64,000 nucleotides of DNA from Candidatus Latescibacterota bacterium (GCA_965223905.1 CBDCXV010000011.1:1600001-1664000), one strand, 5' to 3'. Counted from the stretch's first letter, positions 2,561 through 19,525 are shown. The notes: generated by a model not told the origin, from the letters alone. A program made the numbers and translations.

Positions 2561-2813
2561 TACAACCGCTCCGGATCGCCCTATCCGTGGGTAGCGGTAC
2601 TTTCCGGTCGCTCTCCTTCCACCTGCCGGGGCATTCCCGGAGTTCCACGGGTGGAAAACAAGGCCCCATTGTTTCCATGGGTGCCGAATTCGCCGTTCCT
2701 ACTTATATTTTCAAAATCAGCCGCTATTGTGTGCCGGATTCGCCAGGCGCTTATATGATTGTCACATTGGCCATTTAACCAACTTCAAACTCTTGATTTA
2801 AGGAAGGAGCTTC

Positions 2814-3242
2814 ATGCCTGACCTAGGTAAAGCATTCAGGGAAGAAATTTCGCGGGTGGCTGGCAAGGACCTGCGCGCTGCCGTAAACCAGCTGAACGAG
2901 CAAATCCGCAGCCTGCAGGGGGAGGTGTCGGAGCTTAAGTCGCAGATTGCCGGCAACCAGGGGACGACCGGCGAGCCATCCGGGCAGCCCGCAGGCGACG
3001 CCAAGCCGGCGTCCAAGGAGACAGTCAGCGTCAGAGTGACCCCGTCGTCGATCAAGAAGCACCGCAAACGGCTGCGCCTGTCGCAGGCCCAGATGGGCAA
3101 GCTGCTCGGAGTCAGTGCCATAACGATCTTGAACTGGGAGCAGGGCAAGTCGAAACCGCGCGCCGCCAACAGGGAAGCGATCGCCGAGCTGCGCACCATG
3201 AAACTGAAAGATGCCGAGCTGATGCTCGAGGGTATGAGCTAA
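2814..3242 (+). CDS. XRE-family helix-turn-helix protein with N-terminal coiled coil
   Basis: RBS AGGAAGGAG; C-terminal HTH RKRLRLSQAQMGKLLGVSAITILNWEQGKSKP. Confidence 0.85.
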   Translation: MPDLGKAFREEISRVAGKDLRAAVNQLNEQIRSLQGEVSELKSQIAGNQGTTGEPSGQPAGDAKPASKETVSVRVTPSSIKKHRKRLRLSQAQMGKLLGVSAITILNWEQGKSKPRAANREAIAELRTMKLKDAELMLEGMS

Positions 3243-3437
3243 AGAGGCAGCACGCCAACAACAGAACACCTCGCGGCTGACTATTCAGGTGTTTCTGTTT
3301 GTTCCTGGTTGGTGTTGGCACACGGCAGTTTCCAGTTGGGAGCCCCGCACGGCGGCTACGCTGGCTGCAGTCGGTATGTTTCGGATCCAGTTTCGCCCTT
3401 CACTCACCGAGTGGAGTCACAAACGGCAATGATCCTT

Positions 3438-3482
3438 CGGCAGTGAATTCGGGTGGCTTGGCCCCACCCGAATTCACTGCCG
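3438..3482. repeat. Perfect 19-bp inverted repeat (stem-loop) between convergent genes; bidirectional terminator or REP-like element
   Basis: CGGCAGTGAATTCGGGTGG - 7-nt loop - CCACCCGAATTCACTGCCG. Confidence 0.75.
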
Positions 3483-3569
3483 TTCTGCCGACCCCGGAAG
3501 ATCCTCGCTCATCCCCCCTCGCTTCAGACCTGTGCAACCGCGGAACCGCCCGGGGGCGCAAACAGTCCT

Positions 3570-5228
3570 TCACTCTTCCCCTTTTCGAATCCACAAGCTC
3601 GCCGCTACCCGCCTTATTCGTTCGTCGCGCCATTCGACGTCGCTCCGGTAGCGGTCGCGTAACCCCTCGACGTACCTCTCGAACGCCTCCCTGTTCCTGG
3701 CCTGCCTGACCTGGTGCCGCAGGATCCGGGTCAGCTCCTCGAACGCGCGCGGCCTCCGGGGCAGCCGCTTTTCGACGCGCACGACCGCGAACCCGCCTTC
3801 GATTTCAAGCGGACCCAGAAGCGCTCCTTCTTCCGCTTCCCGGACGAGATCGAAGAGCCGTTCCCGTTTTTCCCCTTCCCCATCTTTCAGGTGTAAATGC
3901 CCGCCGGTTCCGTCGGCCCCCGGACGGATGCTGTGGTCCCGGGCCAACTTCTCCATGTCCGCGCCCGCCTCGATCCGCAGCCGCAGCGCGGCCGCGGCGG
4001 CCCGTGACTCGACCAGGATCTCTATCACCTCAACCGACGCCGGCAGCATGAACTCTCCCTTGACTTCCTCGTACCGGTCGCGCAGCTCCTCCTCCCCGGG
4101 AGGGCCGACCTGGTCCAAAACCTCCCGCCGCAGCCGGTCGATGAGCAGCTTCTTCTGCTCCAGCTCCAACGCCGACGCGAACTCCTCGGTTTGGTGAAGG
4201 CCGCGGCGCTCCGCTTCCAGCACCGCCAGGGTGTCGGCGATCACCCAGTAGCGGAGAGCCCTGGCGACTGAGACGCTGTCCACCAGGGCGGGGGGTTTCA
4301 TCCCCTTTCCCACCAGGATTCGTCCGGCCTCCTGCGCGGAGATCACCCTGTCGCCCCCCCAGGTCAGGGCCGGGTCCTCCAAGGCGAGCCCGGCCCGGGG
4401 ATCCTGCCGGCCCGCCCGCACCATCGCGACGACCGCTTCGGGGTGGTAGGCGACCGCGAATCTCTGTTCGAGCTCCTCGAGCCAGGCCTCGCGCCGCGCC
4501 ATGGCTTTGCGGCGCTTCAGGGCCGCGGCGACCGCCGCCCCTGCCTGCTCGATGGGGACAGGGACCGCATCGAGAACCTTGAGCAACTCGAAACCGCTTC
4601 CCGCGGCCAGCGGTCCGGCGATTTCGCCCGGCGACAGTCCGCGCACCGCCGCCCAGAGCTCCCGGGGCAGCTCTCCGGGCCCGAGGTAGCGCCCAAGGTC
4701 CCCACCCCCTTCTGCGTCCGGGGCGGTCGAGCGCTGCTTCGCCACCTCGGCGAAGTCCGCCCCCTCGCCCAGGGCGCGTGCGGCCTCTTCCGCCTCGGCT
4801 TTCGTAGCGCAGGAGATATGGGCGATCCGCAGCTTCACGTCCCATCCGTCCCGCCGGTACGCCGCCTCGATCTCCTCCTCCCCGACGGAGACGGAATCCC
4901 CCAAGGCCTCGGCGAGGACCTGTTCCCTGAGCCGCTTCACGTAGATTTTGCGGAGCGGCCTGACGATCTCGGGTTTTTCAGGGTACCCGACGGCCCTCGC
5001 CTCGGCGAGCATCAGCTCGCGGTCGACGAGGCTCCGGAGCAGATCGCGGACCGTCTCCTCGCGCGATTCGGCCGCGGCCGAATCCTGCCTCAGGCCGTCC
5101 GGCAGCCTCGACGCGAACTCGGCAAGCTCCCTCTCTCCAATGGGGACGTCCAGCACCCGCACCAGGGGTTCGTCGGCGGGCCCGCCACAGCCGGTCAGGA
5201 GGAGGAGCGCCGGCGCCGCCCGGGTCAC
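3570..5228 (-). CDS. Peptidyl-prolyl cis-trans isomerase (PpiC/SurA/PrsA-like) lipoprotein with two parvulin domains
   Basis: GTG start overlapping the upstream stop; lipobox LLLLTGC; HISCATKAEA..GADFAEVAKQRS..GGDLG and EILVES..GADMEKLARDHS. Confidence 0.85.
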   Translation of the reverse strand: MTRAAPALLLLTGCGGPADEPLVRVLDVPIGERELAEFASRLPDGLRQDSAAAESREETVRDLLRSLVDRELMLAEARAVGYPEKPEIVRPLRKIYVKRLREQVLAEALGDSVSVGEEEIEAAYRRDGWDVKLRIAHISCATKAEAEEAARALGEGADFAEVAKQRSTAPDAEGGGDLGRYLGPGELPRELWAAVRGLSPGEIAGPLAAGSGFELLKVLDAVPVPIEQAGAAVAAALKRRKAMARREAWLEELEQRFAVAYHPEAVVAMVRAGRQDPRAGLALEDPALTWGGDRVISAQEAGRILVGKGMKPPALVDSVSVARALRYWVIADTLAVLEAERRGLHQTEEFASALELEQKKLLIDRLRREVLDQVGPPGEEELRDRYEEVKGEFMLPASVEVIEILVESRAAAAALRLRIEAGADMEKLARDHSIRPGADGTGGHLHLKDGEGEKRERLFDLVREAEEGALLGPLEIEGGFAVVRVEKRLPRRPRAFEELTRILRHQVRQARNREAFERYVEGLRDRYRSDVEWRDERIRRVAASLWIRKGEE

Positions 5229-7864
5229 AGCTGGACCCCGGCATATATGGTGATGAAGCTCCGCGTCGTCACTTCCGGCCTGAGTCCCTCGGGGTCCGTG
5301 CGCACCAGCTCGAAACCGAAGGTCGTCATCAGGTCGTAGCCCATGTACGCGGAGGCGTTGCGCAGCTGCACCGCGGTCGTCAGCCCGGTCGAGCTGTCCT
5401 CGCTGTCGGGCGGAGGCGGGTCCCGCAGCTGCCTGAAGATCTCGTACTCGAGGCCCAGCTCGACGAAGCTCTTCCGCATCACCGGAAAGCGCAGCATCGC
5501 CATGAACAGCTCGGTCAGCTCGCGGCGCTTGAACTCGTCGGCGAACACCGGCACCTGGCGCCGGAACTCGCTCTTCCAGCGCGGCACCAGGGTCCAGCGG
5601 CCGAGCTCGAGGGTGTACTCCGCCTTGTTGATCAGGCCCAGGAAGGAGCCGTCCCGCCGCGTCCTTCGCAGGCGCAGCTCGAGGTCGTCGTCGAGCTGGT
5701 GGTAACGCTGCCATTTCAGTTTGTGAGTCAGCCTGATCCCGGCGGGAATCCGGTGGTAGAACCCGAGCCAGGTGGTGTTGATCCAGGTGTTCCTCGCCGG
5801 CAGCCGGTCCACTACCAGCTGCAGGGCTCCGCGCGTCCCCGCCGGCTGCCGCCACTGCAGGAGATCGTCGGCGATCGTGTCCCTGACCCGGCGCAGATCC
5901 TGAAAAACCAGGAGGCGGCCCCAGCGGGGGTGGTCCCGCTCTCCTGCCAGCGTGAGGTACGACGCCTCGGTGACGCGGTCGTCGGTCAGCTGATCCATCT
6001 GCAGGCGCCCGATCATCAGGCGCGAGTCCGGACCGAGGTTGGCCCCGCCGAACAGGTTGAAACCCTCGCGGTCCCGCTTGTACGGGTAGTCCGGCTCCTC
6101 GTCGTTCTCGAAGCGGTCGACGACGGCGTTGTGGTTCATGTCGACGCCGTAGAGGAACTCCGGGCGGTCGGCGTGGAAACGCAGGAACGGCTCCTCGTAG
6201 TCGGGAATCAGGTTGGGGCGGTCCTCGTTGTCGTTCTGGTTGAAGTCGGAGATGAAGTCGTTGTTCTCGTCCCAGCCCGGGAACACCTCGTCGTCGCCGG
6301 CCCCCCAGCCCTTGCGCCGCCAGTCCGGCCGCCGGTCCTGGTCGTCGTTGTCCTCTACCATCTCGTAGAGCTCGAAATCGTTCCCGAAGGCGAGCACCCC
6401 GGTCTCGTCCGAGGTGACGAACGAGGTCGAGTAGCGCGGCGAGACGCTGAAAAGCTCGACGAAACCGAACCAGGGCAGGGCCGTCTTCGACAGGTTGGCC
6501 ATCCAGGCCAGCGCCTGGCTGCTCGCCGAGTGGTGGCTCTTCAGTCCGGGGTTGGGGTACTGGCGGAACTGGTGGTTGACGTCGATCTCGGCGTACCCCT
6601 TGAACCCGTGCAGTTCGGCGACCTCGAGGGTGAACCCGGCGATCTGGTTGGCCGTCGGCAGGCCGTAGTCGAGCGCCAGCACGCGCTGGTTGGAGCCGTC
6701 CTTGACGTTGCCCGACGCCTGCGCCGCCGGCAGAAAGACCCGCTGGTCCCGGTCGTTGTACTGGCGGTCGGACGACATCTCGATCAGGTAGTCGTTGGCG
6801 ACCACCAGTTCCACCTGGACCTGTTCGATGTCCGTGGTGCTCGGACCGATGTAGCTGACGTCGGTGAAGTCGTAGCGCAGCTGGATCTCCTCGGTGCCGT
6901 CGGCGGAGAGATAGCCGCGGCGCTCGAAGCCGCCGTCGACGAAGGGACGGAACCCGATCTCGCTACCGCGCACCTCGTTCCCCTCTACGTCCCGGATGAG
7001 GATGTCGCTGGAGAAGAAGGCGCCGCCCCCCTCGTTGTCCTCGGGGGAGTCGTCCTTTATCGCCACGGCGATCTCCGTCACCGGGGCGAAGTTCATCGCC
7101 TCGGTCAACTGCCCCTGGAAGATGTCGCCGTTGACCGCCTCGAGCTGGGACTGCGAGTGGTGGGAGTTGACGTAGGTGCCGCCGATGCGGGCGAAGTCGC
7201 CGACCTGGGCGACCACCCTGCCGCCGAAGAGGTTGGTGTTGTTGGTCCGCGCCTCCGCGGCGAATCCCGACAAGTTGGGGGCGCTGGCACGCGACATCAG
7301 CACCGTGGCCTCGTACTTGTCGGAGGAGAAATCCCACTGGACGCCGTTGAACAGCGGCTTGGAGAAGGTCATCGGAGTCAGGGTGGTGCGGATCCGGCTG
7401 CCCACGGTGATCGCGTAGTGGTACTGCCCCTTGTGGTCGGCGGCGACGACGAGGTTGTTGAACCAGAAGTTGAACTCCCTGCTCTTTTCGAGGGTGCTGC
7501 CGAACGGCTGCGGATTGCGCTGCCGCCAGTCGTAGATCAGCCACCCCCGCGTCAGGTAGTTGCCGTACACGTCGTAGAAGTACTCCCCCTCGAGGGCGGT
7601 GCCGACGTAGCGCTGGTACTGGCGCCGCGAGTAGTTGGAGTACTCCCGCTGGCGCCACTGGTACTCGACGTACAGCTCCTGGGGCACGTACCACTTGTGC
7701 ACCGCCGGATCGAGGGCGTCGGTGAGAATCCCCGGGCCGGTCGGCTCGAAGGTCACCCGTCCCCCTCGCGTCACCGTTCCCAGGCGGGCGCCGAACTCCT
7801 GGGCCTCGAGGCCGGCTGCGGCCAGCAGCAGACCGGCCGCGAAAATGAGAATCGGACGTGTCAT
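5225..7864 (-). CDS. Large secreted hypothetical protein, probable outer-membrane beta-rich protein with Asp-rich motifs; paralog of 9903-12578
   Basis: Signal peptide MTRPILIFAAGLLLAAAGLEA-Q; aromatic/amphipathic strand patterns; DENNDFISDFNQN, DMNHNAVVDRFEND; ends FITIYAGVQL. Confidence 0.8.
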   Translation of the reverse strand: MTRPILIFAAGLLLAAAGLEAQEFGARLGTVTRGGRVTFEPTGPGILTDALDPAVHKWYVPQELYVEYQWRQREYSNYSRRQYQRYVGTALEGEYFYDVYGNYLTRGWLIYDWRQRNPQPFGSTLEKSREFNFWFNNLVVAADHKGQYHYAITVGSRIRTTLTPMTFSKPLFNGVQWDFSSDKYEATVLMSRASAPNLSGFAAEARTNNTNLFGGRVVAQVGDFARIGGTYVNSHHSQSQLEAVNGDIFQGQLTEAMNFAPVTEIAVAIKDDSPEDNEGGGAFFSSDILIRDVEGNEVRGSEIGFRPFVDGGFERRGYLSADGTEEIQLRYDFTDVSYIGPSTTDIEQVQVELVVANDYLIEMSSDRQYNDRDQRVFLPAAQASGNVKDGSNQRVLALDYGLPTANQIAGFTLEVAELHGFKGYAEIDVNHQFRQYPNPGLKSHHSASSQALAWMANLSKTALPWFGFVELFSVSPRYSTSFVTSDETGVLAFGNDFELYEMVEDNDDQDRRPDWRRKGWGAGDDEVFPGWDENNDFISDFNQNDNEDRPNLIPDYEEPFLRFHADRPEFLYGVDMNHNAVVDRFENDEEPDYPYKRDREGFNLFGGANLGPDSRLMIGRLQMDQLTDDRVTEASYLTLAGERDHPRWGRLLVFQDLRRVRDTIADDLLQWRQPAGTRGALQLVVDRLPARNTWINTTWLGFYHRIPAGIRLTHKLKWQRYHQLDDDLELRLRRTRRDGSFLGLINKAEYTLELGRWTLVPRWKSEFRRQVPVFADEFKRRELTELFMAMLRFPVMRKSFVELGLEYEIFRQLRDPPPPDSEDSSTGLTTAVQLRNASAYMGYDLMTTFGFELVRTDPEGLRPEVTTRSFITIYAGVQL

Positions 7865-9903
7865 CACCAAGCCACCGCCAGGACGCCGGAGTGGGTCTCC
7901 TCGAATGCATCCGCGGCGACCCGGAGCACCCAGACGTAGGTCCCGGGAAGCGCCCGGCGTCCCCCGGCGGTGCGCCCGTCCCAGGTGAAGGAAGCAGGCC
8001 CCAGGTCCCGCTCCGCCTGCAGCGAGGCGATGGAGCGCCCCGAGAGATCGTACAGGTCGAGGGAGACCGGCACCGACCGGACCACCTGCAGCAGGTTGAA
8101 GCGGACCCTCAGCTCGTCGTTGGCGCCGTCCCCGTTCGGGGTGACGACGCGGCTGTCGAGGACGATCTCCCCGACCAGCCGGCCGATCTGCTCCTTGGGG
8201 ATCTCGACGGTGAGGTGGGACAGCTCGTCGATGTCGCCGGGCCCGAAGTCGACGGCGTTGCCCGGCTCGAGCCGCTGCGGCACCGTGGGGAAGCGGCTGT
8301 CGAACACCCTGCCGGTGAAGGTCGTGCCGAAGCGGAAGATCGGGATGTCGAAGGTCAGCTCGAGGACCGAGCCGTCGCGGTCGATCCTCGGCAGGCTGAT
8401 GCGGAAACCGTCCCGGGTCGAGGACTCGATCTCGAACTCGACCGGGACGCCGGCGACCTGGACGTTGCGGATCCCCTCGACCGGGGCGTTGCTGTCGATC
8501 TCCAGGCGGTCGTACCCGTGGATATCCCCCCGGCCGCGCAGGAGCACGGCGTAGCGGAAGGTCGCCGGCTCCTCCGCTCGGGCCAGCCGCGGGAACACCT
8601 CGGCGCGCAAGGTGTCGGCGATCGGGGGCTGCAGGTAGTCGAACTCGAGCCGCTCGAGGAGCCGCGTGTCGAAGAGGCCCCCGGCGAACTCCATGCGGAA
8701 GCGGACGAATCGCCGCGGCGCCGGCGCCGGGTTGAGGCCGCGGTTCTCCAGCGTCTTCCAGGGACTCCAGTTTTCCAGGTCTTCCTGGAGCGTCACCTGC
8801 TCGGACCGGGGCAATCCCCAGTACTCCTCCGCGGTCACCTCGACGATGCGAACGGACATGAACTCCTGGATCCGCTGCAGAAACAGGATCGGCGTATCGT
8901 CGAGGCCGGAGCGCATGCCGACGGTCAGGTTGGAGAAGAGCTCCTCCCCCGCGACCTGCTCGCGCCAGCGGATCGACCCGATGGTAGCCGGCGCACCCAG
9001 GTCGATCAGGTCCGACAGGTAGGTGCCCTGGGGCAGGTACCCGGTCCCGTAGACCTCGATCTCGTCGACTTCGAACGGCAGCTCGGTCAGCGAACGCAGC
9101 TTGATCAGGCGCACGTACTGCGGGGTCAGCGGCACGTCGACCACCGGCTCCTCGTTGTCGTGCTCCCGCACCGCCAGGCGGTCGGGGACCCCCTTGATCG
9201 TGCTGGTCAGCTGCTCGTTCAGCCAGACCTCGTAGCCGCGCAGGAAGTCGTTGTGGAAGGGATGGTCGGGACTGGCGACCACGGTGTTGCGAGGGTAGAA
9301 GCGGATGCGCTCGATCCCCACCCGCTGCCCGAAGTCGAGGATGATCCAGATGCCGAACGCCGGCACCACCGGGTTGAACGGCACCGGCTTGCGCTCGAAG
9401 GCGACCTCGTGATCGCCGTTGACCGTGCCCTCGAGCTGCGCTCTGCGCAGCACCGTCGCCGAGGTCGAGGAGTTGGGCGCCGTGATTGAGCCCTTCCCCT
9501 CGAGAACCAGCCCCGCGATGTTGCGGCTGCCGTCGAAGAAGGTCGGGCTGATCCAGCCGCGCCGCGCCGCGAACTCGATGCCGTTGCCGGGGGTGTTGGT
9601 CGTGTCGAGGGTGGGGCTGAAGCGGCTGCCTGCAAGGATCACCGGATCGGTGCCGTCGCCGCCCTCCTCCCAGGGGTGCTCGCTGCCCCCGAGGACGAAG
9701 GTCCGCACCTCGGCGGCGGCCGCGGACAGCGCCAGCAGGAGACCTGCGGCGGCCAGCAGCCCGCAGCGAACCTCCTGCCCCAGTTGCGGTCGTACCCCCG
9801 GGAAGGCTCCGCCAGGACCGCGCACCGGGGGCCGGCCGGACGCCGAGACGCCCCCGGGGGCCCGCAGGCCCGGTCGCCTGGCTGCCGCCAGGGTCGGCTC
9901 CAT
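7864..9903 (-). CDS. Secreted protein with C-terminal TPNGDG (CHU_C-like)/FlgD Ig-like domain
   Basis: Signal-like GLLAAAGLLLALSAAAA-E; IERIRFYPR; EIEVYG; C-terminal VTPNGDGAND...WDGRTAGG..PGTY; start set at the TGATG overlap. Confidence 0.82.
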   Translation of the reverse strand: MEPTLAAARRPGLRAPGGVSASGRPPVRGPGGAFPGVRPQLGQEVRCGLLAAAGLLLALSAAAAEVRTFVLGGSEHPWEEGGDGTDPVILAGSRFSPTLDTTNTPGNGIEFAARRGWISPTFFDGSRNIAGLVLEGKGSITAPNSSTSATVLRRAQLEGTVNGDHEVAFERKPVPFNPVVPAFGIWIILDFGQRVGIERIRFYPRNTVVASPDHPFHNDFLRGYEVWLNEQLTSTIKGVPDRLAVREHDNEEPVVDVPLTPQYVRLIKLRSLTELPFEVDEIEVYGTGYLPQGTYLSDLIDLGAPATIGSIRWREQVAGEELFSNLTVGMRSGLDDTPILFLQRIQEFMSVRIVEVTAEEYWGLPRSEQVTLQEDLENWSPWKTLENRGLNPAPAPRRFVRFRMEFAGGLFDTRLLERLEFDYLQPPIADTLRAEVFPRLARAEEPATFRYAVLLRGRGDIHGYDRLEIDSNAPVEGIRNVQVAGVPVEFEIESSTRDGFRISLPRIDRDGSVLELTFDIPIFRFGTTFTGRVFDSRFPTVPQRLEPGNAVDFGPGDIDELSHLTVEIPKEQIGRLVGEIVLDSRVVTPNGDGANDELRVRFNLLQVVRSVPVSLDLYDLSGRSIASLQAERDLGPASFTWDGRTAGGRRALPGTYVWVLRVAADAFEETHSGVLAVAW

Positions 9904-12578
9904 CACTCCAACCCCGCGTTCACGGTGAAGAACATCAGGTTCGCCCGCTCCCGCCGCCCGAGCTCGAACGCCCGCCGCGTCCACTGCATTCCGGTGCGCG
10001 TCACCACCCGGTATCCCTGGTAGGCGACCTGGTTGGTCAGCTGCACGACCACCGTCCAGGTGCGCAGGTCCTGGTCGATTTCCGCCCGCCTCCCCTTCAG
10101 CATCCACAGCTTCGACAGCTCGAGGCCGGCCTGCAGCCCGGTGTCGAAGATCTGCCGGCCGTAACGGGCGAAGTACGACGCCCGCGTCTGTTCGGCGAGC
10201 AGCGGCTGCGACCAGATCAGGAAGACCGTCTCCTCGACGCTGGCCGCCTTCTCCAGGCGGATCCGGTAGGGGCGGTCGAAGCGCAGCTCGCTCTTCCAGC
10301 GCGGCTGAAAGAACCCGAGGCCGACCGGCACCGACCACTCCGCCTTGTCGATGAGGCCGACGAAACCCGAGCGCCTGCGGGCCAGCCTGCGCGCCACGGC
10401 CTTGTCGCCGTCGCGCTGGAGGGCGATGTCCCACTTGAAGCGGTGCATCATGCGCAGGCCCTCGACGAGGCGGTGGCTGAGGTCGGCGTAGAAGGAGTTC
10501 TTCCAGGTGTTGCGCGCCGCCAGCGGATCCTCGACGTCCCGCATGCGCCCGATGGCGCCGACCGGCTGCACCCACTGCTGCAGGTCGTCGGGGACGTCGT
10601 CCCGGACCAGGGCGCCGAAGTCGAAGACCCGCACCTTCCCGAACCCGGACAGCTCCCGCTTCCAGGCCGCCATCCCGTAGAGCGCCCGGGTGTGCCCGTC
10701 GCCGGAGATCAGGCCGCTGTTCTGGCCGCCGACGAGGAGACTGCCGCCCCCTCCGGCCCGCACCTTCAGGTAGAGGTTGTAGCCGCGGTGATCCCTTCGG
10801 TACGGATAGTCGGGGAGGCGGTCGTTCTCGAACCGGTCGATGGTTCCGTTGTGGTTCATGTCGGTGCCGAAGAGGAACTCCGGGCGGTCCGACCGGTAGC
10901 GCAGGAACGGCTCGTCGTAGTCGGGGAACAGGTTGAGGTTCTGGTTGTGGTCGTGGATGAAGTCGCCGTTCTCGTCGTACCCCGGCCAGGCCACCTCCCG
11001 CGTCGAGCGCTGGAACGGCCGCTCCCACTCCGGGACGGCGTTGAAGTCGTCGTCGTCGTCGACGAACTCGTAGAGGTCCGCTATGCGCGCCTTGAAGCGG
11101 ATGGTGCCGTCGGACTGGGTTAGCCAGTAGGCGGTCGCGTAGGCGTCGTCGATGGAGAACAGCTCGGCGTACAGCTTCCACGGGAAGCGCTGATATGCGG
11201 CCTGGGCATAGCCGGCGCGCGCGTTGCGGGTCGCGTGGTGCTGGAGCCCCTCCTCGAGGTTGGGGTACTTGCCGTGACGCCGGTTCAGCACTGCCTCCCC
11301 CTGCAGCGACAGGCCGCCGAGGTCGACGACGTTGAAGTCGACGCCGATCAGCTCGTTCCCGGTCGGCAGCAGGTAGTCGAGCTTCAGCACCCTGCTGTTG
11401 CTGTTGTCGCGGACGTTGCCGCGGGCGCGGCTGACGGTGGTGAAGACCGGCTCGGCGTTGCGGACCTCGCCGTCGGTCTGCAGGTTGGAGGCCATCTCGA
11501 CCCGGTAGTCGTCGGCCACCGCCAGCTCGAAGCTGACGCGCTGCAGGTCGAGAGACTCCATCCCGTGCTCCTCGCCGAGGGAGGCGAGGTCGTACTCGAG
11601 CACCGCGGCCTCGCTACCGTCCGCGGCGATCGCCCCTTCGCGCAGCACCCCGCCCTTTATCCTCGGCACCAGGCCGATGTCCCGGCCCCGGTGCACGCGC
11701 CCCGACTGGTCGACGAGGATGATCTCGTGGCGGAACAGCGAGGCCCCCCCGCTCCCGTCTTCCGGGGAGTCGTCCCGCAGGCGCACCCACACCTTCTTCA
11801 GCGGCTGGTTCTGCTTCGTCGTCAGCGCCCCGTGCAGCGGGTTGCCGACGTTGAAGTCGACCTGCGTCTGGGCGTTGTGAGCGTTGACGTAGGTGACCCC
11901 CATGGCGACGGCGTCGAGGACGCGGAACGAGGTGTGGCCGCCGAACAGGTGGGTAGAGTTGCTGCGCCGCGCCTGGTCCGGGCTGCTGGGGCGCGACAGC
12001 AGCAGCGACGACTGGTGGCGGTCGGAGGCGACCTCGAGCCGCAGGCCGTTGAAGCGGGGCTTGTTGAAGGTGAGCGGCGTCAGGTGGGTGGAGATCTGGT
12101 CGCCGATCATCAGGCGGAACTGGTGGTCCCAGTGCCCCTCCGAGGCGATGACGAGGTTCTGGAAGATGCTGCCGTAGAAATCGGTGGCGCCCGGGTCGGA
12201 CGGCCTCTTGCGCAGGAAGCTGCCGTTGCGCAGCGACTGCTGCTGCTCCCAGGAGTAGACCAGCCAGCCGCGGCCGAGATGGTTGCCGAACGAGTCGTAC
12301 CACTCGTCCCCTTCGAGCCTGCGGTCGAGGTAGCGCTTGTAGAATTCGGTCGCGTAGCGGGTGTCGGTGGCGAACCACGGATAGCGGTGGTACTCCGGCA
12401 GGTGGATGGGGACGTAGTTCTTGTGGACCTCCGGGACGACGTTCTCCATGCCGAAGGAGGGGGCAAGGCCCCGGGGAAGGGCCGACGGCGTCGCCCCGGG
12501 AACGGCGCCCGGGTACTGGGCCCAGCAGAGCTGCACCGCGGCCCCGGCAACGGCGAAGGAGGCCAGCAGCCTGCCCAT
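9903..12578 (-). CDS. Large secreted hypothetical protein, probable outer-membrane beta-rich protein; paralog of 5225-7864
   Basis: Signal MGRLLASFAVAGAAVQLCWA-Q; shared blocks GWLVYSW, LTPLTFNKPRFNG, DDSPED, PDYDEPFLRY..DRPEFLFG.DMNHN; ends FFTVNAGLE. Confidence 0.8.
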   Translation of the reverse strand: MGRLLASFAVAGAAVQLCWAQYPGAVPGATPSALPRGLAPSFGMENVVPEVHKNYVPIHLPEYHRYPWFATDTRYATEFYKRYLDRRLEGDEWYDSFGNHLGRGWLVYSWEQQQSLRNGSFLRKRPSDPGATDFYGSIFQNLVIASEGHWDHQFRLMIGDQISTHLTPLTFNKPRFNGLRLEVASDRHQSSLLLSRPSSPDQARRSNSTHLFGGHTSFRVLDAVAMGVTYVNAHNAQTQVDFNVGNPLHGALTTKQNQPLKKVWVRLRDDSPEDGSGGASLFRHEIILVDQSGRVHRGRDIGLVPRIKGGVLREGAIAADGSEAAVLEYDLASLGEEHGMESLDLQRVSFELAVADDYRVEMASNLQTDGEVRNAEPVFTTVSRARGNVRDNSNSRVLKLDYLLPTGNELIGVDFNVVDLGGLSLQGEAVLNRRHGKYPNLEEGLQHHATRNARAGYAQAAYQRFPWKLYAELFSIDDAYATAYWLTQSDGTIRFKARIADLYEFVDDDDDFNAVPEWERPFQRSTREVAWPGYDENGDFIHDHNQNLNLFPDYDEPFLRYRSDRPEFLFGTDMNHNGTIDRFENDRLPDYPYRRDHRGYNLYLKVRAGGGGSLLVGGQNSGLISGDGHTRALYGMAAWKRELSGFGKVRVFDFGALVRDDVPDDLQQWVQPVGAIGRMRDVEDPLAARNTWKNSFYADLSHRLVEGLRMMHRFKWDIALQRDGDKAVARRLARRRSGFVGLIDKAEWSVPVGLGFFQPRWKSELRFDRPYRIRLEKAASVEETVFLIWSQPLLAEQTRASYFARYGRQIFDTGLQAGLELSKLWMLKGRRAEIDQDLRTWTVVVQLTNQVAYQGYRVVTRTGMQWTRRAFELGRRERANLMFFTVNAGLE

Positions 12579-12825
12579 CAGCGTCCGGTCCCGGAAGCGG
12601 ATCCCCTGAATCCTGTGGCCCCGGCCTCGGGCTCGCGAGCCATCCGGGCGAGGCGCACCGGGTGCGTACTGCCCTCCAAGGCAGGCCCGCGGGACGGGAT
12701 GGCGGGGAAGATCACCGATGGAACAGATGGAGTTGTTCTGGATTCTACCGCGATTCCGCCCATCACAATGAGCCGCACGAAGAAGGGGGAGATACTGTCG
12801 GGACAGGACACCCGTTCCCCCGCCA

Positions 12826-15468
12826 TCAGTACGCCACCCCGACCGCGGCCAGGGCCGATCCTGCGGCATCGGCATCGGTAGGGACGGCGACGCGCACGAG
12901 GTAGAGGCCGGGACCCACCCGCCTGCCCTCGTCGTCGCTGCCGTCCCATGCGACGGCGTGCTGCCCGCTGGGAATCTGCCGCACTCCCCCGAGGTCGCGG
13001 ACCTTGCGGCCGGACAGGTCGTACACCCCCACCTGCAGGTCGCGCTCCCCCTTGATCCGGAACACCGAGAACAGGATCCGGGTGCCCTCGTTGACGCCGT
13101 CGCCGTTCGGCGTGAACAGCGCCGGTTGCGCCCGTACCTGATCGAGGATGGGGGCGTCCTCGACGTCGGCGACCACCACCATCGACTCGCTGCGGACGTC
13201 GCCGACCGCGTCCCCTTCCGTGAAGGCCTGCACCACCCCGGGCCGCTGCGAGTTCAGCAGCTCCACGGTGAACGTGGTCCCGCTCAGGAACACCTTCGTC
13301 CGTATCTCCGCCCTGTAGAGCAGGGCGCCGCCGCTGACCCGGCGCGGCAGCTCGACGACCACCCCGCCCTCCTCCAGGGTCTCGATGCGGGCGCTGCCGG
13401 GCCACAGCGCCCTGCCGCGGCCGCCGCGCAGCTGCGCGGCGCTCCCGGACTGCAGCGACACCAGCTCGATCGGGGCCGCCGACGACGAGCGCAGCCGCAT
13501 GCGATCGAACCCGGAATCGCCGCTCTGGAACTCGGGGCGCAGGTAGATGGCGAACTCCTCCTCGGCCCCGGGGCGCACTCCCTGGTTCGGCCAGATCTCG
13601 GCGAAGGTCTGCTCGACGAGCGGCGCTTCCAGCCCCAGCTCGATACGCCGGATGCTCGCGGCGCGCAGCGGGTCGGCCGTAAACAGGCGCACCTGCAGCA
13701 TCAGCATGCGCCGCGGACTGGGGGACCTGAACGACTCCCCCTGGTCCCGGTAGGGCTCGCTCCAGGCACTCCAGCCTTCGCCGGTGAACTCCTCCGTGGT
13801 CGTGAATCCCCGGTTGCGCTCCGAGGTCTCCTCCCACTGCTCCTCGCTGATCTCGCGCCCGAACAGGTCGTAGTAGCGCTTGACCAGCAGCAGGTCGTCG
13901 CCGCTGCGGCTGCGCACCTCGAGACGCGTGCCCTCCGGCGCCTCCCCCTCCCAGTGGACCCCGGTGAAGATGCGCGACGTCCCCAGCTTGACGATGGGGG
14001 ATTCCAGAACGACTTCGGAGACGTGCCCCTCGCCGTACGCCTGCAGCTCGCTCAGGCTGCGGTTGATCTCGGTCCGCGCCCCGGAGAGCTCGAGCCGGCG
14101 CAGCTCGATCAGCCGCACCTCCCGCGGCGGGAATCGCTCCTCGAGCTGCAGGAACGCCTCCCTGTTGTGGCGCTCCTCGAAGTCCTCCCAGACGCGGTTG
14201 CCGTTCGGGTCGACGGAGCCGTCCGATACGCGCAGCTGGTAGGCGGTGAGGGCATCCTGGGCGCTGAGCAGGCGGATGCGGTCGATCCAGAACCTGGCGC
14301 CGAGGTCGACGAGCAACTGGTTGCGATTGCGCAGGGGGTCGTACAGGCGCAGCGGGTAGAAGGAGGAGTAGAGACCGTCGGTCGAAACGGTGAGGACGAT
14401 GTCCTCGAACAGGTCGGTGGCGCGGTTGCGCAGGCGCTGGGTCAACCCGACGGCGTTGTCCCCGAGAGCGATGACCTCGAGCTCGGCCACCCGCGGGCGC
14501 TCGTGCCGGTAGTGGCGGACCGGGCCCTGCTCCTCGGCCGGCAGCTCCTCCCAGGTTTCCTCCTCGACCAGGATCTCTCGGCCGGCGACGGTCTGGCGGA
14601 AATGCTCGACGGCCCCCTGGTCATGGGCCGACAGCAGGGCATACTCCTCAGCGGTGACCTCCTCGCCTCGCGGACCGTCGGTGTCGAGGGCCTCGAGCCA
14701 GACCATCTGCGCCACCTCGCCGGCGACGCCTGGAGGGAGCGGGCGCTGCCGCGGCACCTCGAACTCGAACTCCCGCTGCTCCTTGTTGCGGCGGGTCACC
14801 TGGGCGACGCGGTAGAACTCGGCGTCGTAGCGGGTCGCGGTGTTGGTGGTGGCGCGTCCGTTCGACAGCAGCACGCGGAACTTCAGGAAGGGGTCTCCGG
14901 CCCCTTCCCCGGCGAACTTCACCCGCACCCGGTCGGCGATCACCGCGCGCCCGAGGTCCACTTCCAGGAACCAGTTCCGCAGCGAGTCCGGATCCTCCGG
15001 CTCCCAGTAGGTAAGCGGGTCGCCGTCCATGACCAGCGCCGCGGTCTCCCGGCTGGTGCCGGCCTGGCGCACCCCCCCGACGACCGTATCCCCAATGGCG
15101 ATCACCTCGAAGTCGGTGGCGTTCAGCATGGCGTTGATGCGGCGCCGCAGGAATCTCGGCCTCACTTCCCCCTCCTCGATCAGGTGCCCCCCCACGGCCC
15201 CCTTCCAATCCCGCCAGTGGCCGTCCCCGCGCACGGTCAGGCGGTTCCCGGCGACGGTGTAGCCGCGCTGTGCATCGGTCGCGCCGGCGCCGAGAAAGAC
15301 CACGGAGAGCAGGATCCAATGGCGGAATCGGATGCCGAGGTTCACGGCTGAATTGTGCGGCCTTTTCGCGACCGCGGCGATCCTGTGCCGCCCTTTTGCC
15401 GGAATGCTCCGGTCCGGATGCTTCCCCGGGGAGGATAGCCGGCAGGTCCGTGGGCCGCGGCGGGTCAT
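12826..15468 (-). CDS. Secreted protein with C-terminal TPNGDG/FlgD Ig-like domain (alternative GTG start at 15345)
   Basis: Signal WILLSVVFLGAGATDA-Q; two discoidin-like repeats (VDLGR..ADRVRV, VDLGARFWIDRIRL); FTPNGDGVNE...WDGSDDEG..GPGLY. Confidence 0.82.
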   Translation of the reverse strand: MTRRGPRTCRLSSPGKHPDRSIPAKGRHRIAAVAKRPHNSAVNLGIRFRHWILLSVVFLGAGATDAQRGYTVAGNRLTVRGDGHWRDWKGAVGGHLIEEGEVRPRFLRRRINAMLNATDFEVIAIGDTVVGGVRQAGTSRETAALVMDGDPLTYWEPEDPDSLRNWFLEVDLGRAVIADRVRVKFAGEGAGDPFLKFRVLLSNGRATTNTATRYDAEFYRVAQVTRRNKEQREFEFEVPRQRPLPPGVAGEVAQMVWLEALDTDGPRGEEVTAEEYALLSAHDQGAVEHFRQTVAGREILVEEETWEELPAEEQGPVRHYRHERPRVAELEVIALGDNAVGLTQRLRNRATDLFEDIVLTVSTDGLYSSFYPLRLYDPLRNRNQLLVDLGARFWIDRIRLLSAQDALTAYQLRVSDGSVDPNGNRVWEDFEERHNREAFLQLEERFPPREVRLIELRRLELSGARTEINRSLSELQAYGEGHVSEVVLESPIVKLGTSRIFTGVHWEGEAPEGTRLEVRSRSGDDLLLVKRYYDLFGREISEEQWEETSERNRGFTTTEEFTGEGWSAWSEPYRDQGESFRSPSPRRMLMLQVRLFTADPLRAASIRRIELGLEAPLVEQTFAEIWPNQGVRPGAEEEFAIYLRPEFQSGDSGFDRMRLRSSSAAPIELVSLQSGSAAQLRGGRGRALWPGSARIETLEEGGVVVELPRRVSGGALLYRAEIRTKVFLSGTTFTVELLNSQRPGVVQAFTEGDAVGDVRSESMVVVADVEDAPILDQVRAQPALFTPNGDGVNEGTRILFSVFRIKGERDLQVGVYDLSGRKVRDLGGVRQIPSGQHAVAWDGSDDEGRRVGPGLYLVRVAVPTDADAAGSALAAVGVAY

Positions 15469-17393
15469 CAGTACACCACCGCCACGATCCCCTGCCGCAC
15501 CTCGGGATCGCCGTCCCCGCGCACCTGCAGCCGGTAGATGTAGGTCCCGGGCGCCACGAGCGCGCCGTCACTGCCGCGGCCGTCCCATACCTGCCTGTGG
15601 TTGCCGACCGGCTGCACCGCCTCGACAGCCGCCACCCGGCGCCCGCTGAGATCGAACAGCGACAGCTCCACCTGCGCCGGCCGGGTCACCGTCAGCAGGG
15701 AGTAGCCGATCCCGAGCCCGTCGTTGACGCCGTCCCCGTTGGGCGTCAGCACCGGATGATCGAGCCCGAAGTTGGCGAGCAGCGGGGCGCGTTCCCCCTC
15801 TTTCTCCAGGGTGACGACCAGCCCCTGCGCCGCGGTCTCGGCGTCGGCGTCGCCCGGAATCGCGAATTGGTACCCCGTCTCTTCCAACGTGATGGTTCCC
15901 TTCGTGACCCGCTTCTCGATGACGCGGTCGTCGAAAACGCGGATCCGGAACGCGGTCTTGTCGCGGTACACGGTGCCCCGGAAGAACACCTGGACGAACG
16001 ACCCGTCCTGCTCGACCGGGCGCAGCAGGTTGACGAGCATGCCCCCGGGGTGACGCCGGGAGGTGAAGGCGACGTTCCGGTCGTCGACCCGGACCTGCCG
16101 CACCCGCCGGATGTGGGCATCGGTCTCGATCAGGATGCGCTCGAAGCCGGTGTCGCTGCTGCGACCCCGGCTTCCGGAAGAGGAAATCTTCATGTGGGCC
16201 AGCATCGCCAGGGAGAACTCCGTCTCCACCCCCGCGGCCACCGTGTCGGGGCTCACCTCGGCGACGAGGCTGCGCACCAGCGGCGGACTGATCATCTCGA
16301 ACACCAGGCGGTCGAGACGCACCCCGGGGGTGAACAGGCGCACCCGGAACTGCATGAAACCCTTGAGGTTCGGGGAGCGCACTATTCCCTGCGACACCGG
16401 CTCCCAGCCGGTCCAGTTGGGGTTCGGGCGGATGGGTCCTCGCAGGTGAGGGTAAGCCCTCATGTACACCGCCCTGTCCTTTGCCCGGACGATCTCGTCC
16501 CCATCCTCCTCGAGAAGGAAATACCACTCCGGTTCCTTGTCGGGCCCCACCCGGGTATGGATCAGCACCGGGGAAGAATCGACCCCCCTGCCTTCGTAGC
16601 GGACAAGGCCGAACACCCTCGATCCCGACCGGATCGGCTTCGAGAGGAACTCCCCCGTCGGCAGCGAGCCGTCCCCGTAGACCTCGAGCTCGGCGATCTC
16701 CCAGGGCCGCTCGGAGGTCGCGGCGATGCGGACGAAGCGCACGTCCCGGGACTCGAACCGCTTCTCGACAACGGGCTGAAAGTTGGGCAGGGCAGGATAG
16801 AAGGAGAACAGCTCCTCGAACTCGCCGAGGACATACGAGGGGTGGGTGGCGACGGAGAACTCCTGCAGAAAGCGGCGCTGGTTGCGCGGGTCGAGGCGGG
16901 GAAAGAAGCGCAGCCGGTTGACGCGGAAAGTGCCGCCGAGGTCGAGGTAAATCGGTGTCGTCCGCCCGAAACCCTCCCTCCGGGACTGCCCGGAGATCAC
17001 GTCGGCGTCGTAATAGGTCAGCGGGTCGCCGTCGGCGAGCACCTCGGCGCCGGGGATCGATATCGCTGCCGGCCCCATGAACCCCCGGACGATCCGAATG
17101 ACCAACCCCCCTCGCCGACTCATGGTCAGGGAGAGGTTGGCGTCCGGCTCGACACCCCACATCCAGATGGAGTCCGCACCGACACCGATGAAGCGGGAGG
17201 CCTCAAGTTGCTTGTTCCAGCCGCCCTGCCGGGAGTTCAGGCCGACCACAAGGGAGTCGATGGCGCCGGCGGATTCGACCAGGACGAGGAGGAGAAGAAA
17301 AATGGATGCGGGAACCACCGGGGTGAACTTCAGGGCAAGGAGCGGGAATCGGACCGCAAGCGCATCGTACCTCTTTTCCTGCGCTGGGCTCAT
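15468..17393 (-). CDS. Secreted protein with C-terminal TPNGDG/FlgD Ig-like domain
   Basis: RBS GGAGG before ATG 17393; hydrophobic signal IFLLLLVLVESAGA; LDLGGTFRVNRLRFFPR; IAELEVYG; LTPNGDGVND...WDGRGSDG..PGTY. Confidence 0.82.
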   Translation of the reverse strand: MSPAQEKRYDALAVRFPLLALKFTPVVPASIFLLLLVLVESAGAIDSLVVGLNSRQGGWNKQLEASRFIGVGADSIWMWGVEPDANLSLTMSRRGGLVIRIVRGFMGPAAISIPGAEVLADGDPLTYYDADVISGQSRREGFGRTTPIYLDLGGTFRVNRLRFFPRLDPRNQRRFLQEFSVATHPSYVLGEFEELFSFYPALPNFQPVVEKRFESRDVRFVRIAATSERPWEIAELEVYGDGSLPTGEFLSKPIRSGSRVFGLVRYEGRGVDSSPVLIHTRVGPDKEPEWYFLLEEDGDEIVRAKDRAVYMRAYPHLRGPIRPNPNWTGWEPVSQGIVRSPNLKGFMQFRVRLFTPGVRLDRLVFEMISPPLVRSLVAEVSPDTVAAGVETEFSLAMLAHMKISSSGSRGRSSDTGFERILIETDAHIRRVRQVRVDDRNVAFTSRRHPGGMLVNLLRPVEQDGSFVQVFFRGTVYRDKTAFRIRVFDDRVIEKRVTKGTITLEETGYQFAIPGDADAETAAQGLVVTLEKEGERAPLLANFGLDHPVLTPNGDGVNDGLGIGYSLLTVTRPAQVELSLFDLSGRRVAAVEAVQPVGNHRQVWDGRGSDGALVAPGTYIYRLQVRGDGDPEVRQGIVAVVY

Positions 17394-17611
17394 TCCCGTT
17401 CCCTCCGCGGAGCGGGCCGAAAGGGGGCCGGCTCCAACCCAAAGGTTCACCTAAAAATCGCGGGTAATTTAGCGGAAACGAATACGCAAACCAACCTTGA
17501 AAAAAGATTTCCCAAGGACGGGATGTTCAGGACGTATTCTTTGTAAAAAAAACGGCTCATGGGTTCGACGTCCGGCTCCAATGCAATTCAGGATTGGATT
17601 TGCCCAAGACT

Positions 17612-18054
17612 CTAATCAATCATGGAAGCCTTGATTCGACCCCAGGAAACCGACTCCACCGCGCTGTCACCCGGGTGGGCAGGGTCGGCGGACAGCAGCA
17701 GCCCATCGAGAAATGTATCCGCCCGATGGAGAAACATGTTCCAGAGCGTGCGGTCGCTCTCGTCTGATCGCTGAACATCGAGCGCCCAATTACTCCACTC
17801 GATATCGCCAGGTGGGTCATGGTCAAAGACTACAATCGAAAAACCGATCACCTGTCCCGCGGCAAAATGGCTGACCACGCTCCCCTCGGGGTGGACCCAC
17901 GTTTCCCCCCAGCGGTCGAACGGGGTCACTTACATCTCGATCACCCAGAGGATCGGCGGTTCTCCGGCCACGCCGAGGTGAGCCTCCGCAGACAGCCCGA
18001 ATCCGAGGAGCAGAACGAGGGCGGCGGACAATTCCTTCTTGATACAACGGTTCA
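17612..18054 (-). pseudogene. Degraded secreted protein with C-terminal VESVSWGRIKAS motif
   Basis: Signal-like AALVLLLGFGLSAEA followed almost directly by C-terminal sequence (internal deletion); in-frame TAA at 17930-17932 (IEM*VTPFD). Confidence 0.65.
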
Positions 18055-18592
18055 CGAACTTTAAAAAACGGTTCACGAGTCCTTTACCTGTGGTCCGGAG
18101 ACCTGGAAATCCCACGCAGATTCCGGCCTGCTCACGTAAAGTATGAACCCTCTATGTCCTCTGCGGGGGCCGTTCGAGCGAGGGTTCGAACTGCCTGGTG
18201 GGGTGGAGGAGTGGTCGCGGAGGGGTTAGGGTGAACGCCTGGTAGAAACGGAGGGTGCTTGCCTGGGAGTAGAAGCGGGGGATAACGGCGACTACGGCGG
18301 TCAAGTCGAGGGTCATGCCTCAGAAGCAGTACTGCAGGCTTGTGGAAATTCATACCCCCAACTCCGCCTGACAGTGAAAAGGATCACCTCGGCTTCGCTT
18401 CGCCGACCTCCCAACCCCCGGCGCTTGCCGATGGTGACCAAGATGGGCAATCAGCATAATGGGGGGGAGAAATAGTCAAGGGTAAGGGTTTTTTTCATGG
18501 GCCGATGCCAACGAATGCAGAATGATCGATAACCCCGGGAGTGAAAGATCCCGCGGCTCGGACCAACTACACTACATGCGCGAGACCATCGA

Positions 18593-19365
18593 CTACTTGA
18601 GGTGGTTTCCGGTCGAAAGGCTGGCCTTGATACGGCCCCAGGAGACGCTTTCCACGGGGGTACCATCCGTACGGCCGTCTGCGCCCAGAAGAATCCCTTG
18701 CGCCCACAGGTTAGACTCGTAAGCCAACTTGTCCGGCTCGTCGAATGAGGCGTCCGGTCCGAGCAATACGTGGGCACGGTCGGCGAGGAGCGGCTTTGTC
18801 TCCGTGTCAGTGTCCATCATTGTCATAGCGAACCCTATCGTCTTTCCTTTGCTGTCGTTGCCATAATTTTTCGCAAAAGCGGAATATGTTTGTGCCTGTA
18901 CATTCGAACTTTCCTGAATCACCATACTAGCATCACCAAATTCCCGAACGGTCCCGCCACTCTTGTCGCCGTCGACGGCAAAGGACACGAATGCATCGAC
19001 GGCGGGCAACGGCAGAGGCCCATAGCGGTCGTACTCGGTTACGAGGACATCGTCCACGATTTCCGCGGCCACGAACAGGTGGTCGCCGGCATCGTGCAGG
19101 CCAGCCAGATGCGAAAGTCGAACGAGGAAGGATCGTACTCCCCACCTCCGTACGCCCATGGGGAAGTAACGAAATCCAAGGGGGTCAACGTCGGCTCCCC
19201 GAGGACCTCCGCCCAGTCTCCAACCGAACCGTCCTTGAGGTCGATTCGGGCCCGCATCTCGTCGGTCAGCTCGACAAACGGATACAGCCGATCCTGAAAT
19301 TGGGCTTCGAGGCGAAGTGCCGTCAGCAACAGGGGAAGGGCAATACCAAACGACAGGGGTTGCAT
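18593..19365 (-). pseudogene. Frameshifted secreted protein with C-terminal VESVSWGRIKAS motif
   Basis: Signal MQPLSFGIALPLLLTALRLEA-Q and IDLKDGSVGDW in one frame; continuation (HDAGDHLFVAAEIVDD..DGDKSGG..SWGRIKA) in another frame from about 19100. Confidence 0.7.
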
Positions 19366-19525
19366 ATGGGAATTCCTCCATTGATTATACCCGTGTGATC
19401 GGAACTGCGGTACTGAATCGAATCAAAAGAACATCGGCCATCCTCCCCCACGTAGCGACCGCGACCTGAATGCAGGTCGCCATTACGGCGCTGGTTCTTT
19501 AGAGAGCTTTTTTCGCTGAAAGTCG

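Follow-up and report, generated by a model that had tools for sequence, protein, structure and literature searches.

Multicopy cassettes of giant predicted outer-membrane barrels and type-B-like tailed proteins in a Latescibacterota genome

We examined a 64,000-nucleotide stretch of DNA from Candidatus Latescibacterota bacterium (GCA_965223905.1, CBDCXV010000011.1:1600001-1664000), referred to below as the window. An operon on its minus strand encodes three tailed "cargo" proteins, two "partner" proteins of about 880 residues and a peptidyl-prolyl isomerase (PPIase) lipoprotein. [quoted passage not shown] The window operon is one of about 21 paralogous cassettes and not a single operon, a point absent from the first-pass annotation of the window. 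We propose, with a probability of about one half, that the T9SS brings the cargos to a cognate giant barrel, on which they are displayed. The gene set is not a chance arrangement: it recurs in 21 loci of its own genome and in 77 of 80 loci elsewhere.

Cargo Proteins with Type-B-Like C-Terminal Domains

The three cargos are paralogs that can be aligned over their full length (26% and 33% identity to cargo1), and all of them carry the same invariant C-terminal pattern, TPNGDG..N, DLSGR, WDG and PG.Y. The common architecture ending in TPNGDG that had been ascribed to them is therefore confirmed. Hydrophobic N-terminal signal segments are visible in the translations (signal peptides were judged by eye throughout), and the matches to the tail domain stop 3-5 residues short of the stop codon. 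The Pfam model CHU_C matched cargo1 with 35.0 bits and cargo3 with 33.0 bits, while cargo2, with 17.4 bits, remained under the cut-off of 27; FlgD_ig matched the three with 27.3 (cargo1), 28.1 (cargo2) and 23.9 bits (cargo3). The CHU_C and FlgD_ig matches of cargo1 are located at residues 567-656, and the tail of cargo3 taken alone reaches 37.9 bits with CHU_C. An alignment of 52 tails, drawn from the three window cargos and 49 relatives of cargo3, served to count model matches at E up to 0.01. CHU_C was found in 52/52 and FlgD_ig in 51/52, and among the NCBIfam models the type B domain TIGR04131 matched 51/52 and the type A domain TIGR04183 matched 22/52. Some cargo relatives are labelled by NCBI as [quoted passage not shown]. 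The earlier view of the tails as type B T9SS domains is supported insofar as they appear to be type-B-like.

Ahead of the tail, cargo1 has a signal-peptide-like N-terminus and a beta-sandwich body. Cargo2 contains a discoidin domain (F5_F8_type_C_2, 36.8 bits, cut-off 27.8; F5_F8_type_C, 30.0 bits, cut-off 28.2), for which the Pfam scan of cargo1 and cargo3 gave no match. An AlphaFold2 model of cargo3, calculated from 51 aligned sequences, had a mean predicted local distance difference test (pLDDT) score of 86.1. From the N-terminus its parts are a signal segment, a domain resembling discoidin and carbohydrate-binding module family 32 (CBM32), Ig-like domains and the CHU_C-type tail. Residues 123-291 superimpose on CBM32 structures, most closely on 4a42_B (VIA Z 14.9, root-mean-square deviation (rmsd) 2.1 over 123 residues). 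Residues 524-679 superimpose on PorU, in its C-terminal part (6za2_B; Z 13.1, rmsd 2.3, 100 residues), and the remainder of the model consists of Ig-like sandwiches. Pfam and fold searches revealed no catalytic domain in the cargos. We infer that they are non-catalytic, lectin-like beta-sandwich chains with a CBM32/discoidin module, which may bind sugars if the predicted fold is a guide.

The Partners as Predicted Outer-Membrane Barrels outside Catalogued Families

Partner1 and partner2 share 37% identity across 865 aligned columns (E 2e-175), and neither matches any Pfam or NCBIfam model at E up to 0.01, in agreement with their first description as paralogs that could be assigned to no family. 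Partner2 has more than 1000 relatives of similar length, the best 120 being 57-93% identical to it; the listed relatives are all unnamed or "hypothetical", none has a precomputed Pfam family, and their labels, where given, are Latescibacteria, Gemmatimonadetes and Handelsmanbacteria. Among 1.84 billion cluster representatives, 790 matched at E up to 0.001. None of the 7998 candidates that were scored was a fused form of the barrel longer than 1542 residues; as evidence against such forms this is weak. The nearest named cluster in a search of the ESM Atlas with the barrel was DUF6029 (0.89), an identity that we dropped when none of the 46 family members scanned matched DUF6029 in Pfam; apart from it, all clusters found in that search were unnamed ones of the family itself.

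The AlphaFold2 model of partner2, based on 64 sequences (pLDDT 81.6, predicted TM-score 0.80), contains some 24-28 long antiparallel strands, as counted from the DSSP string. A beta-rich insert occupies residues ~266-400, and a mostly coil loop region rich in Asp and Asn, which holds many invariant Asp, Asn and Pro columns, occupies residues ~485-600. All 50 listed VIA neighbours of the model are outer-membrane barrels (Z 8.5-14.0). The SlpA complex of Deinococcus leads the list (7zgx_A, Z 14.0 over 422 residues); below it, with Z of 8.5-12.8, come porins, the FimD usher, SprA and LptD. The top Foldseek neighbours are outer-membrane barrels as well (7zgx_A, E 7e-10), with low TM-scores of 0.2-0.27. 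Family models gave no assignment. Neither partner matches the PorP/SprF models PF11751 and TIGR03519 at E up to 0.01, and at E up to 0.1 none of the 46 family members scanned matches either these models or the Pfam models Plug and TonB_dep_Rec. The partners are accordingly placed outside the known porin, TonB-receptor and PorP/SprF families. Since the fold neighbours are barrels only and no family matches, we conclude that the partners are, by prediction, large outer-membrane barrels of an uncatalogued family, and the barrel nature suspected in the first-pass annotation is supported by the predicted structure and its best 50 structural neighbours.

Residues ~45-100 of partner2 (window ~7570-7740, minus strand) are among the most conserved parts of the protein, yet their pLDDT is only 31-67. 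This N-terminal segment may be a docking segment or a plug.

T9SS Genes and Cassette Copies in the Same Genome

The genome that contains the window (7.9 Mb, 93.6% complete) was searched for the T9SS genes SprA, PorU, PorV and PorP/SprF and, in six frames, for further copies of the cassette genes. SprA_N was found with 98 bits in a frame of 2069 residues, and PorU with 617 bits, over its cut-off. The PorV model gave 91 bits (cut-off 250), the PorV-like gene being located directly after PorU. SprA and PorV had been named earlier as genes to look for; SprA and a PorV-like gene are both present, together with PorU. The PorP/SprF models TIGR03519 and PF11751 had no match in this genome, a negative to be read with its controls: 14 control genomes never match, and the sole positive control is the set of weak PF11751 matches in family f2 described below. 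As a separate observation, SprA is found ~9 kb from the end of one cassette (G000 C10:1123030-1141091 and C10:1150349), a proximity that could be due to chance given 21 loci.

The genome encodes 35 open reading frames (ORFs) of the barrel family, 21 of them close to partner2 and 14 distant, spread over 21 loci. It also encodes 56 proteins that resemble the cargos along the body and 36 that have the tail only. For 32 of the 35 barrel ORFs a body-type cargo is encoded within 10 kb on the same strand. Seen from the other side, 43 of the 56 body-type cargos are near a barrel, compared with only 3 of the 36 tail-only proteins. CHU_C matches over the cut-off number 46 in the genome, and 37 of these fall inside the 6.8% of the genome that is within 10 kb of a barrel locus.

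The distant barrels (phmmer scores of 120-235 bits to partner2) are arranged in tandem, two or three at a time, after one cargo2-like gene. Nine ExbB-family matches were found in the genome, of which three are inside or within ~5 kb of loci of this distant subfamily (Table 2); the same search placed no ExbB gene near the window's cassette. The Plug model matched 27 genes. We considered whether the window's barrel subfamily replaces TonB receptors and rejected this in view of the 27 Plug-domain genes and the lack of ExbB near the cassette.

Linkage in Other Genomes and across the Phylum

Relatives of the closer barrels were then sought in other genomes, one genome per species. This yielded 550 confirmed places, and the counts below refer to the best 80. 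These are all from metagenome-assembled genomes, mostly of Latescibacterota, with some of Gemmatimonadetes/Gemmatimonadota or Handelsmanbacteria and a few labelled "uncultured bacterium". A body-type cargo is present on the strand of the barrel in 77 of them, and the three exceptions are contigs of 3.4-5.6 kb. The cargo gene ends right at the start of the barrel in 69/80, and loci with 59-66% identity repeat the order cargo1-cargo2-barrel-cargo3-barrel exactly.

We also sampled 151 genomes of the phylum with four queries, the barrel family, SprA_N, CHU_C and PorP_SprF (Table 1). Barrels and CHU_C tails occur together in 95 genomes, barrels alone in none, tails alone in 7 (with 1-2 weak matches each) and neither in 49. 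These co-occurrence counts indicate that tails and barrels travel together and that the T9SS is near-universal in the phylum. The linkage of cargo and barrel is thus conserved both within and between genomes. The first-pass annotation had named three outcomes that would speak against its proposed secretion or anchoring module; what we found instead is a predicted barrel fold and not a soluble enzyme, no membership in a known porin or TonB family, and linkage that extends to other genomes.

Table 1. Genomes with at least one match, in the phylum sample and in three of its families
Query	All genomes	f1	f2	f3
Barrel family	95/151	63/63	0/30	0/19
SprA_N	143/151	62/63	29/30	19/19
CHU_C (E up to 1e-5)	102/151	63/63	5/30	0/19
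PorP_SprF (weak, 20-28 bits)	29/151	0/63	25/30	0/19

A Model for Cargo Display on the Giant Barrel

In the model that we favour, the cargos would be exported by Sec, and their type-B-like C-terminal domain would carry them through the T9SS by way of the SprA translocon. The adjacent giant barrel would receive them and hold them on the cell surface, occupying the place of the small PorP/SprF barrels that serve type B cargos in Bacteroidota. The parvulin lipoprotein, where present, could assist, in the periplasm, the folding of the large barrel or of the cargos. The assignment of the PorP/SprF role to the barrel draws on gene linkage and on analogy with studied systems. Type B proteins are reported to bind PorP-like barrels for surface anchorage in Porphyromonas gingivalis and Flavobacterium johnsoniae (PMC9143113), and type B cargo genes are reported to stand, as here, directly ahead of PorP/SprF genes (PMC12618676). 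The latter source also describes five conserved motifs, A-E, in the type B C-terminal domains of F. johnsoniae (PMC12618676). The contrast between families f1 and f2 in Table 1 is in keeping with the giant barrel having replaced PorP/SprF, in few independent lineages. A complex prediction for partner2 (residues 23-881) with the tail of cargo3 gave a score of 0.00 in both runs, which speaks neither for nor against binding.

Several observations weigh against this model. The window tails score 17.2 and 20.8 bits on TIGR04131, for which the curated cut-off is 35, and FlgD_ig matches the tails nearly as well as CHU_C, so that a plain Ig-like domain serving some other purpose is another possible reading of the tail. 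PorP/SprF is a third as large as the barrel and has no detectable similarity to it, the analogy being drawn from gene position and from co-occurrence. Neighbouring genes would show the same linkage, whatever their role, if they were duplicated as a unit. Because SprA is nearly ubiquitous in the sample, including the barrel-less families f2 and f3, the presence of a T9SS does not discriminate; and because f3 has neither PorP/SprF nor the barrel, the pattern of replacement rests on very few independent lineages. Finally, 6 of the 95 barrel-bearing genomes have no SprA_N match. Five of these are at most 80% complete. The sixth, G015, is 96% complete, and SprA_N goes unmatched there although the barrel is matched six times and CHU_C once. 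Either its SprA is divergent or G015 is an exception to the T9SS link.

A wider proposal can be built on this model, namely that the barrels are a new class of outer-membrane machine with the role of PorP/SprF which, together with the lectin-like cargos, forms substrate-specific capture-and-import units, a phylum-wide counterpart of the Sus systems made of unrelated parts, with a sister subfamily that runs on ExbB/ExbD motors. We regard this proposal as speculative and, taken as a whole, unlikely.

Alternative Roles for the Cassettes

The cassettes might serve capture and import in the manner of Sus systems. The lectin-like proteins would catch a polymer, the barrel would be its entry channel, and each of the ~20 cassettes would handle another substrate; such a role can coexist with anchoring of the cargos. 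The CBM32/discoidin fold of cargo3, the F5/8 type C domain of cargo2 and the lack of a catalytic domain in the three cargos are in keeping with it, as are the many old paralogous cassettes, whose orthologs in other genera are 50-66% identical, as in polysaccharide utilisation loci. Channels of comparable size (LptD, ushers, MtrB) are among the Foldseek neighbours of the barrel, and the distant barrel subfamily adjoins three of the nine ExbB genes. Our survey of 101 ORFs around 14 of the 80 loci found sulfatases at 3/14 and sugar-type ATP-binding cassette (ABC) ATPases at 2/14. However, the 101 flanking ORFs include almost no glycoside hydrolase, with one weak GHL10 and one CBM9 match among them, and the flanks are for this reason unlike a polysaccharide utilisation locus. 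In addition, the barrel family lacks Plug and TonB-receptor matches, the genome owns 27 ordinary receptors with a Plug domain, no ExbB gene is near the window's cassette, and the sugar binding of the CBM32-like domain is itself putative. We consider a capture-and-import function doubtful on this balance.

The barrel could instead be a translocon or assembly platform of the chaperone-usher or two-partner kind, with the parvulin as its dedicated chaperone and no part for the T9SS. The tightly coupled operon closes with a chaperone-type gene, 12 of the 18 full-length PPIase paralogs of the genome are encoded within 10 kb of a barrel, FimD is among the VIA neighbours (Z 11.9, rmsd 4.7, 272 residues), and the 96%-complete barrel-bearing genome without an SprA_N match would be accommodated. 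Yet models of T9SS sorting domains match the cargo tail, which also resembles PorU in its C-terminal fold, the PPIase is absent from most orthologous operons, the match to the usher is no better than those to ordinary porins (many with Z 11.6-12.8), and a POTRA domain, an usher plug and an N-terminal chaperone-binding domain all went undetected by Pfam in the 46 family members scanned. Self-contained export is, in our estimate, improbable.

A structural role in the envelope, with the barrel a distant relative of the SlpA of Deinococcus-Thermus and the cargos forming a surface layer on it, is the least probable of the alternatives, quite unlikely in spite of SlpA being the best structural neighbour and of sub-threshold matches to SlpA_C (PF21620) in 11 of the 46 family members (12-30 bits, cut-off 35, profile positions ~232-308 only) and, over the same 75-residue stretch, in two distant barrel paralogs of the genome (20-22 bits). 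The window's own barrels have no SlpA_C match at E up to 0.1, no S-layer homology (SLH) domain was seen in the Pfam scans, the TM-scores are low, and 35 diverged copies per genome are unlike a single abundant structural protein. What is more, a profile of 64 barrels run against the PDB found no SlpA chain at E up to 1, the only match being a chance-level one to a restriction-enzyme subunit (E 0.018). The barrel family is linked to SlpA remotely at most. Both the usher-like pathway and the SlpA-like role are less likely than either display on the barrel or capture and import.

Relation to Known Systems

The closest parallel to display on the giant barrel is offered by the type B cargo-barrel pairs of Bacteroidota, for which SprB-SprF of F. 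johnsoniae and PG1035-PorP-PorE of P. gingivalis are reported examples (PMC9143113, PMC12618676). As in those systems, the window cargos combine a Sec signal with a C-terminal domain of the CHU_C/TIGR04131 type, the barrel gene directly follows the cargo gene, several paralogous pairs exist per genome and T9SS core genes (SprA, PorU and a PorV-like gene) are present. The differences are in size, number and accompaniment. PorP/SprF has ~300 residues, whereas the window barrels, at ~880, carry a beta-rich insert and an Asp/Asn-rich loop and fail to match PF11751 or TIGR03519. There are ~21 loci per genome, the cargos fall into two or three conserved paralog classes and are not unrelated adhesins or enzymes, a parvulin lipoprotein is often attached, and the host phylum is Latescibacterota.

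SusC/SusD loci share with the cassettes the many paralogous copies, a large barrel (~900-1000 residues), a lipoprotein of ~550 residues and beta-sandwich, CBM-like surface proteins. Unlike SusC, the window barrel lacks both a Plug and a TonB-receptor domain; in place of a SusD-like tetratricopeptide repeat (TPR) protein, the lipoprotein is a parvulin isomerase; the surface proteins carry T9SS-type tails in place of lipid anchors; and glycoside hydrolases are nearly missing from the flanks. SlpA of Deinococcus radiodurans, the S-layer deinoxanthin-binding complex (SDBC; PDB 7zgx, 8ae1), resembles the barrel in fold and in the weak local SlpA_C matches. It differs in that the barrels have no SlpA_C match at the cut-off and neither an SLH domain nor a coiled-coil stalk, and in genomic context and copy number.

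In a literature search for Latescibacteria or Latescibacter together with type IX secretion, we found no paper and no description of the cassette; subscription journals and supplements were outside its coverage. The main in-silico study of the phylum names, in its accessible text, only non-specific porins and TonB receptors (PMC4454575), and a review lists other phyla of the Fibrobacterota-Chlorobiota-Bacteroidota (FCB) group that possibly have a T9SS, with Latescibacterota not named in the part available (PMC11285876). What would be new is a form of the T9SS cargo-partner principle in which the partner is unrelated and far larger, and its occurrence in a further phylum with very many copies per genome.

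If the proposed display is correct, the T9SS principle of a cargo plus an anchor is tied neither to small PorP/SprF barrels nor to Bacteroidota, and an unrelated family of barrels of ~880 residues serves this role across a whole uncultured phylum. With 35 genes for barrels, 56 for lectin-like cargos and 18 for parvulin lipoproteins, this is a major investment in the cell envelope, and the cassettes are therefore probably telling as to the way in which these bacteria, widespread in soil and water, encounter polymers or surfaces. Annotators would gain a name for thousands of "hypothetical proteins". To our knowledge there is no cultured host, and no member of the family has been studied.

The PPIase Lipoprotein Is a Frequent but Optional Member

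The last gene of the operon, read from the GTG at 5228, encodes a protein with a lipoprotein signal ending in Cys. Three Pfam models, Rotamase_2 (85.9 bits), Rotamase (70.7) and Rotamase_3 (45.7), match it over residues ~148-227 and again over ~385-505, with scores over the Pfam cut-off. In having two PpiC-type rotamase domains, an envelope lipoprotein signal and a gene beside those of outer-membrane proteins, it is similar to SurA, PrsA and PpiD. It is unlike them in that it scores 30-66 bits on the curated SurA, PrsA and PpiD models, far under their cut-offs of 303-493, and in its copy number; the SurA N-terminal chaperone domain was not reported by Pfam in this protein. The genome has 23 PPIase matches, which include 18 full-length paralogs, and the 12 of these that are near a barrel are on its strand, an unusual expansion for a periplasmic folding helper.

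Its association with the barrels is looser than that of the cargos. A PPIase is encoded within 10 kb and on the same strand for 15 of the 35 barrels of the genome, and in the loci of other genomes it is found on the strand of the barrel in 29/80 and on either strand in 41/80. It is absent from the orthologous operons of other genera and follows the second barrel only in L030, a locus that is 95% identical. The PPIase is therefore a frequent but optional member of the cassette. The earlier notion of a dedicated PPIase is weakened by this: a two-parvulin lipoprotein does end the window operon, but in the cassettes at large the gene is not constant.

Operon Layout and Neighbouring Genes

Six long ORFs, all on the minus strand, fill the whole of region 3570-17450 (Table 2), exactly in the order that the first-pass annotation had given, cargo, cargo, partner, cargo, partner, PPIase. 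Its further claim that the genes are joined by overlapping stops and starts stands for one junction, depends on the start chosen at three and probably fails at the fifth. At the partner2/PPIase junction, read from the DNA, the bases GTGA are common to the TGA stop and the GTG start. The cargo1/cargo2 and partner1/cargo3 junctions are one-base overlaps if the ATG codons at 15468 and 9903, respectively, are the starts, and cargo3 and partner2 overlap by 1-7 bases. Between cargo2 and partner1 there is a gap of ~247 nucleotides if partner1 begins at the Met before its signal peptide. The true start of cargo2 is probably ~40 codons downstream, just ahead of the hydrophobic signal segment. Since the relatives of cargo3 have ~637 residues, its true start may be near 9771, ~130 nucleotides further down.

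Table 2. Genes of the window operon (window positions) and loci of the distant barrel subfamily with their nearby ExbB genes (positions in contigs of the same genome, G000)
Feature	Position	Strand	Description
Cargo1	15468..17393	-	~641 residues from the ATG at 17393; longest ORF, 660 residues from the GTG at 17450
Cargo2	12826..15468	-	Up to 880 residues; discoidin domain, long beta-rich body, FlgD_ig/CHU_C-type tail
Partner1	9903..12578	-	891 residues from the Met preceding the signal peptide; longest ORF, 990 residues from 12875
Cargo3	7864..9903	-	679 residues from the ATG overlapping the partner1 stop
Partner2	5225..7870	-	881 residues; signal peptide, predicted giant outer-membrane barrel
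PPIase	3570..5228	-	552 residues; lipoprotein, two parvulin domains
Distant-subfamily locus	C2:278830-294838		
Distant-subfamily locus	C11:908096-918117		
Distant-subfamily locus	C3:1-6114		
ExbB gene	C2:285201		By distant barrels
ExbB gene	C11:904113		By distant barrels
ExbB gene	C3:11278		By distant barrels

The G+C content of the operon region is ~68%, and long antisense ORFs are common for that reason; the frames retained are those with family matches and relatives. A scan of 2600-18800 for promoters and terminators gave 0 promoter-like and 10 terminator-like sites, with 0.9 and 8.6 expected, and is uninformative. The neighbours of the operon (an aminotransferase, a helix-turn-helix (HTH) protein and a molybdopterin oxidoreductase) give no hint as to its function. 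Just downstream, on the other strand, a small HTH_3 protein with weak similarity to the MqsA antitoxin is encoded at 2814-3242 (+). Upstream of the operon are three ORFs without a Pfam family, 21500-24616 (+), 18593-19381 (-) and 19526-20401 (+), one of 1038 residues and two of 262 and 291 residues.

Around the 14 loci of other genomes whose flanks were surveyed, further protein types recur, reported at L043, L078, L082, L084, L089, L096, L099, L100 and L101. Proteins of the FG-GAP/UnbV_ASPIC type are present at 6/14 loci, TPR proteins with a PMT_2 glycosyltransferase-like domain at 4/14 and large fusions with a Spermine_synth domain at 4/14. DUF6785/DUF6784 proteins were seen at 3/14, and leucine-rich repeat (LRR) proteins directly after the barrel at 3/14.

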